Shown here: one piece after another, positions 102-5,519 of the stretch | Position numbering within the stretch: the first letter of the stretch is position 1 | How the letters are laid out: each line of letters begins with the position of its first letter | DNA from: a virus | Taxonomy: Duplodnaviria; Heunggongvirae; Uroviricota; Caudoviricetes | DNA: 5,519 nucleotides | IMG/VR virus record: IMGVR_UViG_2703718781_000016 | Direction: 5' to 3' (one strand) | The notes under the pieces: model-generated | Seen by the model: only the letters and a program-made list of their open reading frames with translations | Database searches by the model: none | What the model was told of the DNA's origin: nothing | Made by a program: the position numbers and the translations under genes

Positions 102-701
102 TCAGAATTTATAGCCGACACCCACGATGAAGCCGTCAGTGCGCCAGTCGCCACTGCCGGAGCCTTCATAAGCAATATCAATGGCCACGGATTCGGTCGG
201 GTTAAACTGCACGCCAGCCCCCCACGCCAGAGACGTGTTGCTGTGGCGACCGTCATCACTTCCGGTCAGCACGTCGTGCGTTTTCCCCTTGTTGTCAGTT
301 ACGCGGAGATAATCCCCGGAGAAAGTCGACACACGGCTGTAAGCCACACCCGCCATCGCATACGCGCTGAACCATTCATTCACGCGCACAGACGGCCCCG
401 CCATTACGCTGAACCAGCGGTTACGAACGGAATCTTCATGCCAGCGGGTATCGCTGTAACGGGTAAGCTGGCGATTCCTGTCTCCTGCATAGCTGAATGA
501 CGTCACCATCCCCAGCGTATCCGTAAACTCATAACGGTATTTCACGTTAATCCCGTTAAGATTATCGCTACCGGGAGCGTTCGTCCGGGCATGAAGATAC
601 CCCGCGCTCAGCGTGGCCTGCTGCTCAGACGCCCATGCAGGCGCACCGGATACGGCCAGACAAATGGCTGCGGACAAAATGGCGGCATAAAGTTTACGCA
701 T
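102..701 (-). CDS. lom: Lom/Ail/PagC-family outer-membrane beta-barrel protein (lambda Lom-like)
   Basis: 199-aa ORF. The N-terminus looks like a signal peptide ([24 protein letters not shown]). The C-terminal ...[28 protein letters not shown] matches the lambda Lom C-terminus as I recall it, and internal motifs ([24 protein letters not shown]) are shared. Terminal aromatic residue F is typical of OMP barrels. RBS GAGAGG lies 5 nt upstream of the ATG. Position immediately downstream of J matches the lambda gene order. Confidence 0.9.
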
Positions 702-767: not shown

Positions 768-3700
768 TCAGCTGATACTGATACCTGCTGTGGATTTTTT
801 CATCACCACAACCAGCAGATCGCTGATACTGGTTGTTGGTGTCCAGTTATTCGCTCCTGATGAAGATACGGTGAATGTCAGTGTCAGCGTCCCCTGTCCG
901 GCAGGCATATCTATAACTGAGGAAAATACGCCCTGAACATCCGTCGTGGACTGATTAAAAATCTCCTGACCATTGCGGGTCACTCTTAACCGGCAGGTTG
1001 AATACCAGTATGACTGTTGGTTATTACTGTTGAAATTCTCATGCTTACCACCGCGGAATAACACTGGCGGTATCATGACCTGCCGGTCAAACTTCTGATC
1101 ATCACTGATTCTTACCGTGATGGTGCCACTGGCATAAGTGCTCGTGCGGGGGAAAGACTTGCTGACCGTTTTGACAATATCGCCTTCAATCTGGTTGGCT
1201 GACAGTTTCCCCTTAATCTGACAGTTCTCATTAATCGTGACGTTGTTGAGCGTCCCTGAGTTCGCATTCACACTGCCACTGATATCCGCATTTTTCGCCG
1301 TCAGTCGCCCGTCCGGCGTCAGGGAAAATGCCGGAGGATTGCCGGATGACGTGATGCTCACCGCAAACAGTCGTTTCAGGAACACGTCGTTCATGAACAG
1401 CTGATTCCCCTGCGCCACAAATAACGGCGTGCTGTTGCCGCTCTCCGGATTTATCATCGCGATACGGTCAGCCAGCAGCAGTATGTTGCTCAGTGGCTGG
1501 CCATCAGTATCCTCAATCCCTGCACCAATCCCGGCCACATAGGGTATGCCATTTTTTGTTTTCTGTACCTTCAGCATGTAAAGTGCAGCAAGGTCATCAT
1601 TTGTGTCCTTCTGCACGCGCTGTATCTGCTGTATGGTGGCGCTCTGGTCCTCCAGCGTTTTACTGACCGTCTGTGTGATTTCATTGCGGGTTTCTGTGAT
1701 GGTGGTCTGCATTTCCGCCATCTCGTCCTTCAGCTGACTGTTGTCAATCTCTGCCCACAGCGCCTCTGCCAGATGCGTTTTTCCTATCTTTTCCCGGAAA
1801 AGTTCCAGATAGCCCGCAGCATCATTGCTCGCCCGTCCACTGGCTTCCACAAAAGCAGATTTACCCACCAGGTTGACGCTGCGCACATAAAACCAGAAAT
1901 CCTTTCCGGGCTTAATGTGCGGACCGGAGACACTCCACTGACTGCCGGTCCCCAGATAACGGGCAGAGGTTTCCACCTGTGCGGCGTCTGCAATTTTTGC
2001 CTCCGAAAACCAGAACTCAAACTGCACCGTCGGGTCATAAATGGTCAGTTTCGGGACTGCCGTTATCTGAAAATAGCCCGGTGTCAGCTCAATCGTGGCG
2101 GGTACCGCAGGTGCATTAATCCTGAACGTGGTGGTGGCCGGTTCCCCCTGCTGGCCATAACTGTTAATTGCCCTGACTGTCAGGGTGTATTCCCCGAGCG
2201 GCAGACCACTGAAACGATGCTCTGTATCCGCAGTGATGGCGGTGGTCACCAGACGGCTGTCTTCTCCGCTTCCGCTGGTCAGGCGCAGACTGAAGCGCAC
2301 ACCCTTCACCACCCGCGGCGTGTCCCATTTCGCCTGTGCCAGATACTGGCCGTCAGCTGCGCTCACCTCCACCGTCAGGTGCTGCACTGCCGGAGGGATG
2401 ACGCTGTTCAGGGTGCCGCTCTGGTCGCCGTCAAAGTGCGCCCCGTTATCCACGATGGCTTCTTTCTCCGGCACATGCTGCACTGCCGTGATGGCAAAGG
2501 TACCGTCCGTGTTTTCCCGGATGGAAACACAGCGGAACAGGCGACGACGCAGTGACGGCAGGGATAGTCCCCATACACCGTATGTCTCCACACCATCAGG
2601 CAGGGTGCTGACCTGTATCCGGTCCGGCGCGGGGTGTGCGGTGATGTCCACACTCACCGGCTTACCGCTGCCGTTAATCAGGTTCACCGTGGCGGCACCG
2701 GTCTCCGGCAGTGTCACCTCACGGTCCAGCGTCAGGGTGCGGCTGGCGGCATCGATGGACAGGACACGTCCGCCGGTCATGGTCCCGGCATAGTCGTTAT
2801 CACAGATTTCAATAATGTCACCGGGTGTGTGACGCAGCCCCTGTGACCCGAGCGTGAAATCCACCGTCTGCGTTTCCAGCAGTCCGGTCTTTATCACCCA
2901 CAGCCCGGCACGGTGGGCCTGACCGCGACTGGTGCAGCCGAACGCATCCATCTTCAGCAGGTTGCGCCCGTAGCGCAGTATGGCTTCCGGGTCTTCCACC
3001 AGTTCCGTGGAGGTCTGCCAGCCGTTCTGCGGGTCGGTGTAATTCACCTCCACCGCCGTGTGGCGGTCCTTCAGGGCGCTGAAGCTGTAGCGGAACCCCA
3101 CGCCGTTATCATCCACCACCACATCGCTGTTGGTGTACGGCCACACCGCATCCGACGGGCGGTCCTGAACGAACGTCAGCGTCTGGCCGTTCCATACCGG
3201 CATACAGCGCATCGCCGAGCAGAAATCACTGAGAACGTCCCACGCCTTACGCTGTTGTGACAGGTACGCATTAAAGGTCATCCGCGGCTCTGTCCCTCCG
3301 AAGCCGTCCGGGACACGCTGGTCACAGTACTGCCCGATGGCATACAGCGCCCACTTGTCCACATCCGCGGCCCCCAGGCGTTTTCCCATGCCGTAGCGCG
3401 GGTGAGTCAGCATGTCCCACAGGCACCAGGCCGGGTTGTTGCTGTATGCCGGTTTCAGGCTGCCGTCCCAGATGCCGCTGTACGTGCGTTTTTCCGGGTC
3501 ATAGTTTGACGGTACCTGAATGATGCGACCGCGGATATGGTAGTTCACCGTCATCTGCTGACCGCCAAACTGCTCCGCATCCACCTGCAGCCCCACAATC
3601 GCCGTGTTCGGGTAGCACTGTTTCACATCGATGATTTCGGTGTATGACGACCAGAGCGTCTTATTCTGCAGCTGGTCCGTGGTGCTGTCCGCCGTCTCCC

Positions 3701-4247
3701 TGACCATCCGGATGTTAAAGGGGCGGGGAGGCAGATTCTCCAGAATCACCGACGCCAGGTACTGTGAGGTGGTCTTGCCGTTAATGGTGACATCCTTTTC
3801 CGTCACCCAGTTACCGTTACGCTGCAACTGAATCAGCAGTCGGACAGAAGAGGGATTACGGTCGCCCTTTGAGGTGGTCTCCAACAGTGACTGCACCCCG
3901 AAGGTGACCCGCAGGCGGTCAATGTTCGCGGACGTAATGGTGCGCGTCACCGGCTTTGCCTTCGTCACTTCCACGCCCAGTGCGGTTTCAGCTCCGGAGG
4001 ACTCAAAGCCTTCAGGTGGTGTCTGCTCCTGCTCCCCGGCGCGCCAGACCGCTGTCACACCATGTATCACAGGATTACCGTCCGTGTCCGTCAGCGGGGT
4101 TTTGTTCACCAGGATACTCTGCAACCCCTTCACCGAACCTTCAATCGGCCCTTCACCAATGGCGTCAATCACGCTCATCATCTGCGTGGACTTAAGATTG
4201 TCCTTTGCCTCTACCGGCGTGTGCGCCTTGCCGCCACCTTTACCCAC
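768..4247 (-). CDS. J: Tail tip host-specificity protein J (central tail fibre), lambda gpJ homolog; 1159 aa with the GTG start
   Basis: The long minus-strand ORF (768..4307 in the track). From the position aligned to the lambda J N-terminus (lambda [30 protein letters not shown]...; here [31 protein letters not shown]...), long stretches are near-identical to lambda J as I recall it (for example [55 protein letters not shown]). I place the start at the GTG at 4245-4247 because it is preceded by the Shine-Dalgarno GGAGAGGGGGA with 5-nt spacing and aligns with the lambda start. The upstream ATG at 4307 would add 20 residues translated through the heptamer repeat tract. Confidence 0.9.
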
Positions 4248-4251
4248 TCGG

Positions 4252-4262
4252 TCCCCCTCTCC
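4252..4262 (-). promoter_or_regulatory. Shine-Dalgarno / ribosome-binding site for J
   Basis: Minus-strand sequence GGAGAGGGGGA followed by ACCGA and then GTG. It is purine-rich and complementary to the 16S rRNA 3' end. Confidence 0.55.
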
Positions 4263-4290
4263 TGTCTGATGTCTGATGTCTGATGTCTGA
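4263..4290 (-). repeat. Perfect tandem heptamer repeat, (TGTCTGA)x4 on the plus strand = (TCAGACA)x4 on the coding strand, in the J 5' leader
   Basis: Read directly: four contiguous identical 7-bp units at 4263-4269, 4270-4276, 4277-4283 and 4284-4290, followed by a degenerate partial unit (atctg). The tract lies between the minus-strand terminator-like hairpin and the J RBS. Confidence 0.9.
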
Positions 4291-4305
4291 ATCTGTTTAT
4301 GCCCC

Positions 4306-4336
4306 AAAAACGACAGGCACCCCGGAGGGTGCCTGT
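4306..4336 (-). terminator. Terminator-like hairpin inside the I-J intergenic region (minus strand)
   Basis: On the minus strand: ACAGGCACCC-UCCG-GGGUGCCUGU (perfect 10-bp stem at 4313-4322/4327-4336, 4-nt loop), then CG and UUUUU (complement of 4306-4310). This is the classic intrinsic terminator architecture, on the same strand as the tail genes. Confidence 0.5.
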
Positions 4337-4470
4337 GTCATGACGGAATAAAATTTCTGAATTTCTTCACATTTTCTGTACGCCCCCGTGGCAGATATCA
4401 TTCCCGGGCGTTACAGTTTTTTCGGGCCAATAAAAACAAAACTCCCTGTGGTTAATCTTCATTTTCTGTT

Positions 4471-4502
4471 CCCGCAGCCTCCATACACTGCGGGATTTTT
4501 TT
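4471..4502 (+). terminator. Terminator-like hairpin on the plus strand (antisense to the tail operon), abutting the I stop codon
   Basis: On the plus strand: CCCGCAG-CCUCCAUACA-CUGCGGG (7-bp stem at 4471-4477/4488-4494, 10-nt loop), then A and UUUUUUU (4496-4502). On the minus strand the same hairpin follows the I stop codon but is preceded, not followed, by the homopolymer run. Confidence 0.45.
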
Positions 4503-4507
4503 ATGCT

Positions 4508-5188
4508 TTACCCCTGCCGCCCGATAACCACCACCTTCCCGTCACCGCCTTCATCACGGGTACTGATGTCCTGGGAGATTCGCCGTGAGCCAACCAGCAT
4601 TTCACCGTAAGGCACCGGCATCGGGTTCCCCTGAGCAATCATGTTATCCAGCGACGAAAAGTACGTGTTCTGTTTACCGTTATCCGTTGCCCTGTATTCC
4701 GGTGTTTTTGGCTTCGGGGCCAGCATCTGTGCCACACCACCCAGTATCATGCTGGCACCCAGTGAAAACAGCATCGTGGTGGCAGAAAAACCGCCGGCAC
4801 TCAGCGCTGCACCCCAGGCTGCCATCGATGCTCCGGCCGTGAAGAAAGAGCCCACGATGGCTGCCGCCCCCAGCACAATCTGCAGTCCGCCCTTTCCGGC
4901 TCCGGCCAGTCGCGGCACAATATGGATGACCGCCCCCTCACCCAGAGGTTCGTGAAGACGGGCGTACACCGCCTCCGGTGCCGTGTCCTCACCGCGAATA
5001 CGTATCTGGTACCAGCCTTCGTTCATCTGACGGCGGAATCCCGGCACCTGTAACGACAGCGCCCGGATGGCTTCCGCTGCCGTGTTCACGTACAGGCTGA
5101 GGCGGCGGCCAAATCGTTGCAAATCCCCGTGAAGGCAGATGCGTGCCAGTGGCGGTGACGCCAGACAGAATGCGTTCGTCGTTGCCAT
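4508..5188 (-). CDS. I: Tail assembly protein I (lambda gpI homolog)
   Basis: 226-aa ORF. Motifs ARICLHGDLQRFGRR, AVIHIVPR, the Gly/Ala-rich hydrophobic segment QIVLGAAAIVGSFFTAG...FSLGASMILGGVAQMLAPK and TDNGKQNTYFSSLDNM match lambda gpI as I recall it. The start lies 103 nt inside the 3' end of K, the same overlap as lambda K/I by my recollection of lambda coordinates. Possible RBS GAGAGG upstream. Confidence 0.9.
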   Translation of the reverse strand: MATTNAFCLASPPLARICLHGDLQRFGRRLSLYVNTAAEAIRALSLQVPGFRRQMNEGWYQIRIRGEDTAPEAVYARLHEPLGEGAVIHIVPRLAGAGKGGLQIVLGAAAIVGSFFTAGASMAAWGAALSAGGFSATTMLFSLGASMILGGVAQMLAPKPKTPEYRATDNGKQNTYFSSLDNMIAQGNPMPVPYGEMLVGSRRISQDISTRDEGGDGKVVVIGRQG

Positions 5189-5519
5189 TTTTCGGAATAC
5201 CTCTCCCGTTTACTCAGTTGTTCAGGCAGATGGTGAAGCAGTTCACCGTTGCCGCAGTAAATGGCGGCATGATTGGCCACCGATGCGCCAAAGCAGCACA
5301 GCAGGATATCGCCCGCCTGTGCAGAGGACAGGGGCACCCGGTAAAAGCCGGTGACCGCCATATTGTCCAGGTAAAGGTTCTGACCGTTGCGCCACCAGTC
5401 ATCCTCACGCTCAAAATCCGGCATATCAATTCCCGCCAGATGGTATGCATCCCGGAACAGCGTGTAACAGTCCGTCACCCCGTGCTCAAAGCGCCGTCCT
5501 GTCAGATGTGGCACACAGC
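5086..5519 (-). CDS. K: Tail assembly protein K (lambda gpK homolog), C-terminal part only; N-terminus lies beyond the window edge
   Basis: The open frame runs to the window end (the first in-window Met at 5514 is not the true start). The visible part has a Cys (VTDCYTLF) and downstream His residues (ANHAAIY, LLHHL) consistent with the NlpC/P60-type papain-like fold attributed to gpK. Placement immediately upstream of and overlapping I fits the lambda K-I-J-lom order. Confidence 0.85.
   Translation of the reverse strand, partial: CVPHLTGRRFEHGVTDCYTLFRDAYHLAGIDMPDFEREDDWWRNGQNLYLDNMAVTGFYRVPLSSAQAGDILLCCFGASVANHAAIYCGNGELLHHLPEQLSKRERYSEKWQRRTHSVWRHRHWHASAFTGICNDLAAASACT

Follow-up and report, generated by a model that had tools for sequence, protein, structure and literature searches.

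A predicted PasB/EcOnc22-family small RNA cassette in the I-J tail gene spacer of a lambdoid prophage

Introduction

PasB is an Hfq-dependent small RNA (sRNA) of enteropathogenic Escherichia coli (EPEC) E2348/69, where it is encoded on the minus strand of prophage PP6 (NC_011601, 1466343 to 1466261, 83 nt) between E2348C_1436 and E2348C_1437 (Pearl Mizrahi et al. 2021, PMC8550237, Table S6). [quoted passage not shown] In enterohaemorrhagic E. coli (EHEC) Sakai, EcOnc22, encoded on the plus strand of prophage Sp15, gives a Northern signal of about 85 nt and is destabilised in delta-hfq, and EcOnc23 (Sp14) and EcOnc24 (Sp11) are listed as its homologues (Tree et al. 2014, PMC4104026, Table S2); a 2021 review gives the targets and function of these three RNAs as unknown. 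We describe here a 5,519-nt stretch of Caudoviricetes DNA (IMG/VR record IMGVR_UViG_2703718781_000016, called the window throughout), and in particular the spacer between its tail genes I and J (positions 4248-4507, 260 nt), in which an sRNA gene of this kind appears to lie.

The window comes from a lambdoid prophage, of which it is the distal tail region. An earlier note on this DNA had suggested that a short non-coding RNA was inserted like a moron into the tail operon at the I-J spacer, and had mentioned the Hfq-dependent sRNAs of lambdoid prophages as possible relatives. Both suggestions proved well founded, since the locus is homologous to and syntenic with that of PasB, and PasB (PMC8550237) and EcOnc22-24 (PMC4104026) are experimentally verified RNAs of that class. 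Our reading, to which we give a probability of roughly 85%, is that the spacer consists of a short ancestral junction and an inserted sRNA cassette of the PasB/EcOnc22-24 family. The ancestral part would be an operon-strand hairpin with its U-run, followed by the J leader and ribosome-binding site; the cassette, self-contained and about 155 nt long, would have entered right behind the I stop codon on the opposite strand, and would carry a CRP-like site (4353-4374), a weak promoter with a TAnnnT box (4412-4417), an RNA of about 80 nt and a U7 terminator. If the window's copy works as its homologues have been shown to do, host RNA polymerase would make the RNA in the lysogen, Hfq would bind and stabilise it, and it would pair in trans with many mRNAs through UUAAUCUUCAU and AACUCC. 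Activation of its transcription by cAMP-CRP from a class-I position is a further step that we read from the DNA sequence only. The element is thus an ordinary Hfq sRNA moron and not a new kind of element; the finding of the CRP-like site is new.

Results and Discussion

Homology of the spacer to the PasB and EcOnc22-24 loci

In E2348/69 both neighbouring genes are on the plus strand: E2348C_1436, for the tail assembly protein gpI, has its end at 1466255, and E2348C_1437, for gpJ, has its start at 1466496. PasB therefore lies in the I-J gap, antisense to the tail genes and with its terminator beside the I stop codon. The corresponding part of the window, 4423-4502, is identical to PasB in 60-61 of 83 columns when the two gaps are aligned, and to the Sakai EcOnc22 allele in 53 of 81. 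From 61 unique IMG/VR I-J gaps we defined allele types A (the window), B (Sakai Sp11, Sp14 and Sp15), C (E2348/69), D and E; a sixth, sodC-linked type occurs in Sakai Sp4 and Sp10. When alleles B, C and D alone are used to build a covariance model (R1), the model matches the window at 4425-4502 over its whole length (67.2 bits, E = 4e-11; positions 1-77 of 77), and has no match in the lambda-type, Citrobacter or Pantoea I-J loci. The 3' end mapped by homology to the PasB family also agrees with the plus-strand transcript end at about 4502 that the earlier note had envisaged.

The positions of the EcOnc RNAs depend on a coordinate correction. Tree et al. (2014) used an older Sakai record, and we calibrated the shift with AsxR (+135 to +139), AgvB1 (+137 to +146) and EcOnc06 (+99 to +227), the last taken as STnc100 (same strand, similar length). 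Their Table S2 (PMC4104026) is offset by about +137 nt from NC_002695.2 over at least 1.27-1.94 Mb and probably to 3.49 Mb (loci L006, L173 and L174 of our comparison set). With +137 applied, the EcOnc22 peak occupies 2902851-2902911 and the aligned PasB homologue 2902851-2902926, and the peaks of EcOnc22, 23 and 24 fall, in antisense orientation, within the I-J gaps of Sp15, Sp14 and Sp11, the tail genes there being on the minus strand. A position beside the J start, to which the uncorrected Sakai coordinates would lead, is an artefact that the calibration excludes. Since the EcOnc22 peak falls on the PasB homologue, EcOnc22-24 are EHEC alleles of PasB, a link that is absent from the EPEC table (PMC8550237) and from the 2026 PasB census.

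The window agrees with PasB in locus, antisense orientation, distance from the I stop codon, terminator stem, U7 tract, the motifs AACUCC and UUAAUCUUCAU, a TCTGA-N6-TCACA site and a TAnnnT box, and the published PasB Northern probe lies on the hairpin homologous to the window's terminator (PMC8550237). The two RNAs differ in length (83 nt for PasB, 80 nt in the window) and are 72-73% identical, with the differences in the 5' third and the promoter spacer; the upstream box is a near-consensus TTCACA-16-TATAAT in E2348/69 and TTCTGT-16-TATCAT in the window. Allele A also has several copies in EHEC, whereas the catalogued PasB is for the most part single-copy with few single-nucleotide polymorphisms. 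EcOnc22-24 have the same locus, strand and architecture as the window's gene and are 65% identical to allele A. Judged by these features, the predicted sRNA of the window is a diverged, unannotated copy of the already described Hfq-dependent PasB/EcOnc22-24 family, and by analogy with its tested homologues it is probably about 80 nt long, expressed and Hfq-dependent.

Rfam returned two chance-level matches over the whole window at E <= 1, one to ST7-AS1_2 inside lom and one to anti-hemB (E = 0.77), the latter because of the terminator. At the gathering threshold Rfam matches nothing on the E2348/69 PasB locus either; the family thus has no Rfam model, and the empty result says nothing against membership. 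A full-text literature search turned up no paper with the terminator sequence or the probe, and one for sRNAs located between genes for tail assembly and host specificity yielded nothing of relevance.

AgvB and AsxR are likewise short Hfq-binding sRNAs, carried as morons by EHEC lambdoid prophages and built of conserved 3' and variable 5' parts, but they are inserted downstream of PR', are 51-60 nt long, and have no sequence or covariance-model similarity to the window's sRNA. Membership of the window's sRNA in these families was rejected, as the window has no match to RF02702 or RF02703 at E <= 1 and the locus lies in the tail operon; as positive controls, the same models found AgvB and AsxR in the Sakai control loci, and not in the PasB locus.

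Architecture of the predicted sRNA gene

The elements of the predicted sRNA unit are as follows.

4353-4374: CRP-like site ATTTCTGAATTTCTTCACATTT, with the core TCTGA-N6-TCACA (TCTGAATTTCTTCACA) at 4356-4371 and its centre at 4363.5
4396-4401, plus strand: second -10-like box TATCAT, from the allele alignment (TATAAT in alleles C and D, AATAAT in B, none in E/L041)
4412-4417, plus strand: probable -10 hexamer TACAGT (TAnnnT), 6 nt upstream of the homology-mapped 5' end
4423-4502, plus strand, antisense to the tail operon: sRNA gene of the PasB/EcOnc22 family (allele A), from homology and the covariance model
4440-4445, plus strand: second conserved motif, AACUCC, from the allele alignment
4452-4462, plus strand: conserved single-stranded motif UUAAUCUUCAU, a candidate seed, adjoining the terminator on its 5' side
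4470-4502, plus strand: sRNA intrinsic terminator, from RNAfold (8-bp stem 4470-4477/4488-4495, 10-nt loop, U7 at 4496-4502)

Homology fixes the 5' end of the RNA to within about +/-2 nt. Its terminator stops 5 nt short of the gene I stop codon. The earlier note had seen a plus-strand terminator-like structure here, and RNAfold bears this out with a stem-loop at 4470-4495 followed by U7; our simple terminator scan missed this hairpin because its loop is 10 nt long. A U-rich stretch, CAUUUUCUGUU, precedes the sRNA hairpin and U7 follows it, so that the U tract of at least 4 by which the RIL-seq study recognised terminators (Table S6 legend, PMC8550237) is present. The stem CCCGCAG/CTGCGGG is kept in all alleles of the structure alignment except E, which has a different stem there.

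The body of the sRNA is A/U-rich and unstructured in the predicted fold. Across allele types the 5' part is variable and conservation is confined to the terminator, AACUCC, UUAAUCUUCAU and the promoter elements; AACUCC and UUAAUCUUCAU are the sole near-invariant stretches of the body, and both are unpaired in the predicted fold. RNAalifold, applied to 18 alleles, recovered the terminator helix alone and no conserved 5' structure.

The position of the gene raises the alternative that the sRNA acts mainly in cis, by pairing with the late tail mRNA and either triggering cleavage or altering expression of J and lom. It is perfectly complementary to the I-J intergenic RNA, it ends within 5 nt of the I stop codon, and the antisense arrangement is kept in every prophage examined. 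However, PasB has 37 Hfq-mediated partners and is almost always the second RNA of the chimera, as is typical of trans-acting sRNAs (PMC8550237), and the RIL-seq summary table (Table S5) has no entry for a transcript of E2348C_1436 or E2348C_1437. Tail genes are also near-silent in lysogens (base means 5-15, Table S2), and the sRNA persists, bound to Hfq, in Sp15 and Sp14, whose J is broken into two open reading frames (ORFs). We regard a mainly cis-acting RNA as improbable on these grounds; the cis and trans modes are not mutually exclusive. Trans pairing of the sRNA with the J ribosome-binding site was considered separately and rejected (5-6 bp by eye, with no covariation between alleles).

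A conserved CRP-like site upstream of the probable promoter

The CRP-like site is the sole match in the window to TGTGA-N6-TCACA at no more than one mismatch. Its core TCTGAATTTCTTCACA fits the CRP consensus at 9 of 10 core positions and is flanked by ATT and TTT. The hexamer TTCACA (4366-4371), which the earlier note had offered as the best available -35 box, belongs to the right half of this site and lies about 60 nt upstream of the start; its reading as a -35 box is not supported. Among 134 units compared, both half-sites (TCTGA and TCACA) are invariant while the N6 spacer has 5 variants; the TAnnnT box is present in 134/134 with 9 sequence variants; and the distance from site to -10 box is 40 nt in 126. 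The centre of the site falls at -60.5 for a start at 4424, and at -59.5 to -61.5 for starts from 4423 to 4425, the start itself being placed by homology. In tandem arrays each unit has its own AAA(A/T)NTCTGA-N6-TCACATTT copy and no hairpin accompanies it.

A CRP-like site near -60.5 suggests cAMP-CRP control, and more specifically that cAMP-CRP may activate transcription of the sRNA from a class-I position. Class-I CRP promoters of the lac P1 type have a site centred near -61.5, or farther upstream by at least one helical turn, a poor -35 box and higher expression without glucose. The window's 22-bp site, predicted from sequence, would lie about 60.5-61.5 bp upstream of the start and has a poor -35 box beside it; its left half is TCTGA, never TGTGA. 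CRP-activated sRNAs include CyaR. Spot 42, on the other hand, is repressed by CRP, which fits a behaviour opposite to that of PasB. In the EPEC data of PMC8550237, PasB is higher in overnight static lysogeny broth (LB) than in exponential Dulbecco-modified Eagle medium (DMEM), and Spot 42 is about five-fold higher in DMEM than in LB. The 2026 PasB census makes no mention of CRP or promoters.

We tentatively extend this to the whole family: the modular arrangement of CRP site, 40 nt, -10 box, sRNA and terminator, found in at least 5-6 alleles, in tandem arrays of two or three and in up to 8 copies per genome, could define a set of cAMP-CRP-driven sRNAs, although we hold this broader proposal to stand somewhat below an even chance. 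If it is true, carbon-source status would drive related but non-identical prophage sRNAs that have so far been catalogued as PasB and as the orphans EcOnc22-24, and, since the cassette is antisense to the tail-operon junction, it might link nutrient state to J and lom expression after induction. The conserved site supplies a testable hypothesis for the timing of these RNAs.

Several points weigh against the reading as a whole. The transcript and Hfq evidence concerns alleles B (EHEC) and C (EPEC) and not A, which is 65-73% identical to the tested alleles with the differences mostly in the 5' half. The C-type copy of Sakai Sp12 and the sodC-linked copies of Sp4 and Sp10 are missing from the table of Hfq targets obtained by CRAC (a study of cDNA made after UV cross-linking) in EHEC; some copies may not be expressed, or multi-mapping reads may have been lost. 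The fold of the sRNA is not unusually stable relative to shuffled sequences (z = -1.0), and thermodynamic stability is therefore no evidence for an sRNA. A sigma-70 consensus scan found no promoter on either strand and no good -35 box, in agreement with the earlier note's failure to see a convincing one. The start is derived by homology from a 5' end that was itself estimated from RNA-seq coverage, and the second -10-like box (4396-4401), 16 nt upstream of the first, makes it uncertain by about 15 nt; that box could possibly act as an alternative upstream promoter, with a start some 15 nt further upstream and an RNA of about 95 nt. As to CRP, C replaces the first G of TGTGA in every copy, so that the left half is always TCTGA, and the LB and DMEM cultures contrasted above also differ in growth phase and aeration.

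An ancestral hairpin on the operon strand

The remainder of the spacer and its surroundings contain the following features.

102-701, minus strand: lom
768-4247, minus strand: tail gene J, with a GTG start at 4247 assigned from lambda J homology and the YYZ-2008 annotation
4245-4262, minus strand: J ribosome-binding site GGAGAGGGGGA and GTG start codon (4247-4245), by direct reading of the sequence
4263-4290: TGTCTGA tandem repeat in the J 5' leader (Tandem Repeats Finder; 4.0 copies, 100% matches)
4303-4336, minus strand: operon-strand hairpin ACAGGCACCC-UCCG-GGGUGCCUGU with U-run, from terminator scan and fold
4508-4510, minus strand: gene I stop codon, from the ORF list; the edge of the insertion
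4508-5188, minus strand: tail gene I
5086-5514, minus strand: tail gene K

The spacer is made up of the plus-strand sRNA gene, the operon-strand hairpin, four copies of TGTCTGA and the J ribosome-binding site. The J N-terminus agrees with that of lambda J, and the J coding sequence (CDS) of YYZ-2008 begins at the equivalent base. With a G+C content of 0.469 (0.403 in 4337-4470) as against 0.605 in gene I and 0.569 in gene J, the spacer is more AT-rich than its flanks, as the earlier note had remarked.

The operon-strand hairpin has a stem at 4336-4313 with 10 pairs (7 of them G-C), a loop of 4, and the tail CGTTTTTGGG (also given as CGUUUUUGGG); its fold has an energy of -25.4 kcal/mol and z = -3.7. 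A G+C-rich stem-loop followed directly by a U-run is the usual criterion for an intrinsic terminator, and the hairpin has this form, so that the minus-strand terminator-like structure of the earlier note is real as a structure; we take it as a putative terminator or stabiliser. Its stem carries a compensatory C-G to T-A change in one relative (L121), with the G.U intermediate in another (L019). The note had pictured the two terminators as facing each other across a core, as for a cis-antisense pair of RNAs. This arrangement did not survive inspection: with the plus-strand structure lying on the right and the minus-strand structure on the left, both point outward, and the supposed core holds the sRNA promoter and the 5' two-thirds of the sRNA.

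A search of species-representative genomes with the I protein showed other I-J gaps. The lambda gap is exactly 60 nt (L130:2173-2232; this locus is 100% identical to lambda, HK630 and DE3), which bears out the contrast of about 260 with about 60 nt drawn in the earlier note. In lambda and many lambda-like prophages these 60 nt consist of an operon-strand hairpin (ACCGCC-UGCG-GGCGGU), a U-run and the J ribosome-binding site. Equivalent hairpins, built on other stems, occupy this position in locus L128 and in one prophage each of Citrobacter and Pantoea, and in lambda and these two prophages hairpin and U-run stand directly upstream of J with no PasB unit present. The lambda hairpin resembles that of the window in its UNCG-type loop (UGCG; UCCG in the window), its G+C-rich stem, its U-run and its place right before the J ribosome-binding site, but its stem sequence is entirely different and no sRNA cassette lies beside it. 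Across lambda and unrelated lambdoid prophages the structure of the pre-J hairpin is thus conserved and its sequence is not. Since lambda has the equivalent hairpin and no insertion, the operon-strand hairpin is an ancestral element of the junction and not part of the insertion.

In lambda late transcription the Q-modified polymerase reads through terminators, and the pre-J hairpin is presumably read through in the same way. A second operon-strand intrinsic terminator, GGGCGTCAGAAATGACGCCT followed by TTTTTT, lies between J and lom (750-731, minus strand); J and lom are thus both preceded by terminators inside the "operon".

The hairpin might instead, together with the conserved A/U-rich stretch upstream of it, form the 3' end of a second sRNA made from the operon strand, for example from the I 3' untranslated region. 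The strength of the hairpin (4336-4303), its U-run and the U-rich stretch before it would fit such an RNA, as would the compensatory stem change and the fact that 4306-4376 is the best-conserved block of the spacer. That block, however, resolves into two things, the hairpin and the CRP-like site upstream of the sRNA unit, and the latter accompanies each tandem PasB unit, and also occurs in L128, without the hairpin. In lambda the gap that contains the hairpin is 60 nt long and leaves no space for a promoter; our scan found no promoter-like site for such an RNA; and no operon-strand RNA, whether as a RIL-seq entry or an Hfq peak, is present at the locus in the EPEC RIL-seq summary table or the EHEC Hfq-CRAC table. 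A second sRNA ending at this hairpin, an option that the earlier note had also left standing, is in our estimate quite unlikely, and given its equivalents in lambda, Citrobacter and Pantoea we keep to the ancestral junction element.

The same block bears on whether the spacer encodes a small protein. A 34-codon minus-strand ORF (4297-4401) is present in allele A, but alleles B, D and E lack its ATG, allele C interrupts it with an in-frame stop, and what is conserved of it falls on the RNA hairpin and the CRP-like site. We rejected it as a gene and find a small protein from this frame scarcely credible, which accords with the earlier note's opinion that no plausible protein is encoded here.

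Distribution of the spacer and of its alleles

The I-J spacer is present in 786 of 5426 complete E. coli genomes, at a median of 4 places per genome, and is 100% identical in EHEC serotypes O157:H7, O145 and O103. It also occurs in 147 phage records, mostly of phages converting for Shiga toxins Stx1a, Stx2a and Stx2c, and in the listed records it is unannotated except in phage 2851, where the J CDS extends into it, and in one record with a whole-prophage feature. The allele-specific part (4377-4470) was found in 464 of the 5426 genomes, where its copies number 3 at the median and 8 at most. Allele A at >=99% identity is present in 399 records, from O157:H7, O26:H11, O103, O111:H8 and O145, and is never annotated; O157:H7 FRIK944 and O26:H11 11368 are among the strains that have this allele. 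It was absent from the seven Sakai prophages that were looked at.

According to the 2026 census, most PasB is single-copy (1,107 chromosomes, 58 with duplicates), varies by only a few nt and occurs in 24 phage genomes. The diverged alleles A and B were evidently not counted there, and this census, restricted to near-identical copies, appears to undercount the PasB family (24 phages against 147 records, and single-copy against a median of 3). PasB, EcOnc22-24 and the window's much more widespread EHEC allele form a single family with a single fixed insertion point, which joins two literatures. Core regulation in pathogenic E. coli is rewired by prophage sRNAs, and few accessory sRNAs of EPEC are as well connected as PasB.

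The J leader varies in another way. The heptamer tract that the earlier note had noticed consists of four TGTCTGA copies, 15-43 nt upstream of the J GTG, and relatives have 0, 2, 3 or 4 copies; the tract behaves as a slippage-prone repeat, as copy number varies among them. Drift of this kind, along with spacer lengths that range from 60 nt in lambda through 240-260 nt here to 715 nt in L052, could be taken to mean that the spacer is an unconstrained junction of variable length with chance hairpins, which is part of the outcome that would have undone the earlier note's proposal. Conservation in the spacer is, however, patterned (the terminator stem, TAnnnT, half-sites fixed around a variable spacer, and a fixed 40-nt phasing), copies at least 99% identical exist in hundreds of genomes, and transcripts have been experimentally verified at homologous loci. 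A junk junction is very unlikely in the face of this. The synteny, the homology, the architecture, the ancestral operon-strand hairpin and the conserved, phased upstream site are all observed here, and the reading of the spacer as junction plus sRNA cassette builds on them.

The I-J junction as a moron site

The sRNA cassette is one of several insertions at this position, and the I-J junction is a moron site. An antisense sodC gene occupies it in Sakai Sp4 and Sp10 and in a Citrobacter prophage (L148), and a lipoprotein gene does so in a Pseudocitrobacter locus (L160). The sodC moron resembles the window's cassette in insertion point, antisense orientation and possession of its own expression signals; it differs in being protein-coding (Cu/Zn superoxide dismutase) and in its size of about 0.85 kb, against about 0.15 kb. 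In Sp10 (L175:8490-9335) and Sp4 (L176:6493-7338) the antisense sodC is accompanied by a PasB-like unit beside the I stop codon, which has no CRP-like site, the 3' end of sodC replacing its upstream region.

A PasB-like unit is present at all seven of the Sakai lambdoid I-J (or truncated) junctions examined (Sp4, Sp9, Sp10, Sp11, Sp12, Sp14 and Sp15). That of Sp12 (L178:13652-13728; NC_002695.2 2217651-2217727) is a near-identical EPEC-type PasB allele that is not among the EcOnc sRNAs, and J is split into three ORFs in this prophage. In Sp15 and Sp14, J is annotated as two overlapping ORFs, likely a frameshifted pseudogene, and EcOnc22 and EcOnc23 are still Hfq-bound; prophages in decay seem to keep the sRNA.

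Tandem arrangements of two or three diverged PasB-like units occur in some prophages, as in the 715-nt I-J gap of L052 (L052:8169-8883), and tandem units were seen in eleven further loci. A TCTGA-N6-TCACA site, a -10 box and a terminator recur in every such unit, with short remnants between units. The 2026 census describes these sRNAs as single per prophage.

Some I-J loci from our search are assigned to distant taxa. Many contigs, of Neobacillus, Pseudomonas, Shewanella, Bradyrhizobium, Enterococcus and others, have the same tblastn match to I as the locus that is 100% identical to lambda, and so look like phage lambda DNA. In a Streptomyces flavalbus assembly, one contig of 3.4 kb is a fragment of an E. 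coli-type prophage and bears a PasB unit. All of these contigs look like assembly contamination.

Finally, the tail operon receives insertions elsewhere. An ant (regulator/antirepressor) moron lies between tail genes L and K in Sakai Sp6 (L172:1054-2709) and in YYZ-2008 (L001:7629-8552). We had considered EcOnc54 of Sp6 as a further I-J sRNA and rejected it, as it lies in this L-K antirepressor moron instead; the Hfq-bound EcOnc54 maps to an intergenic region of the moron, which is thus another sRNA-bearing insertion in a tail operon.

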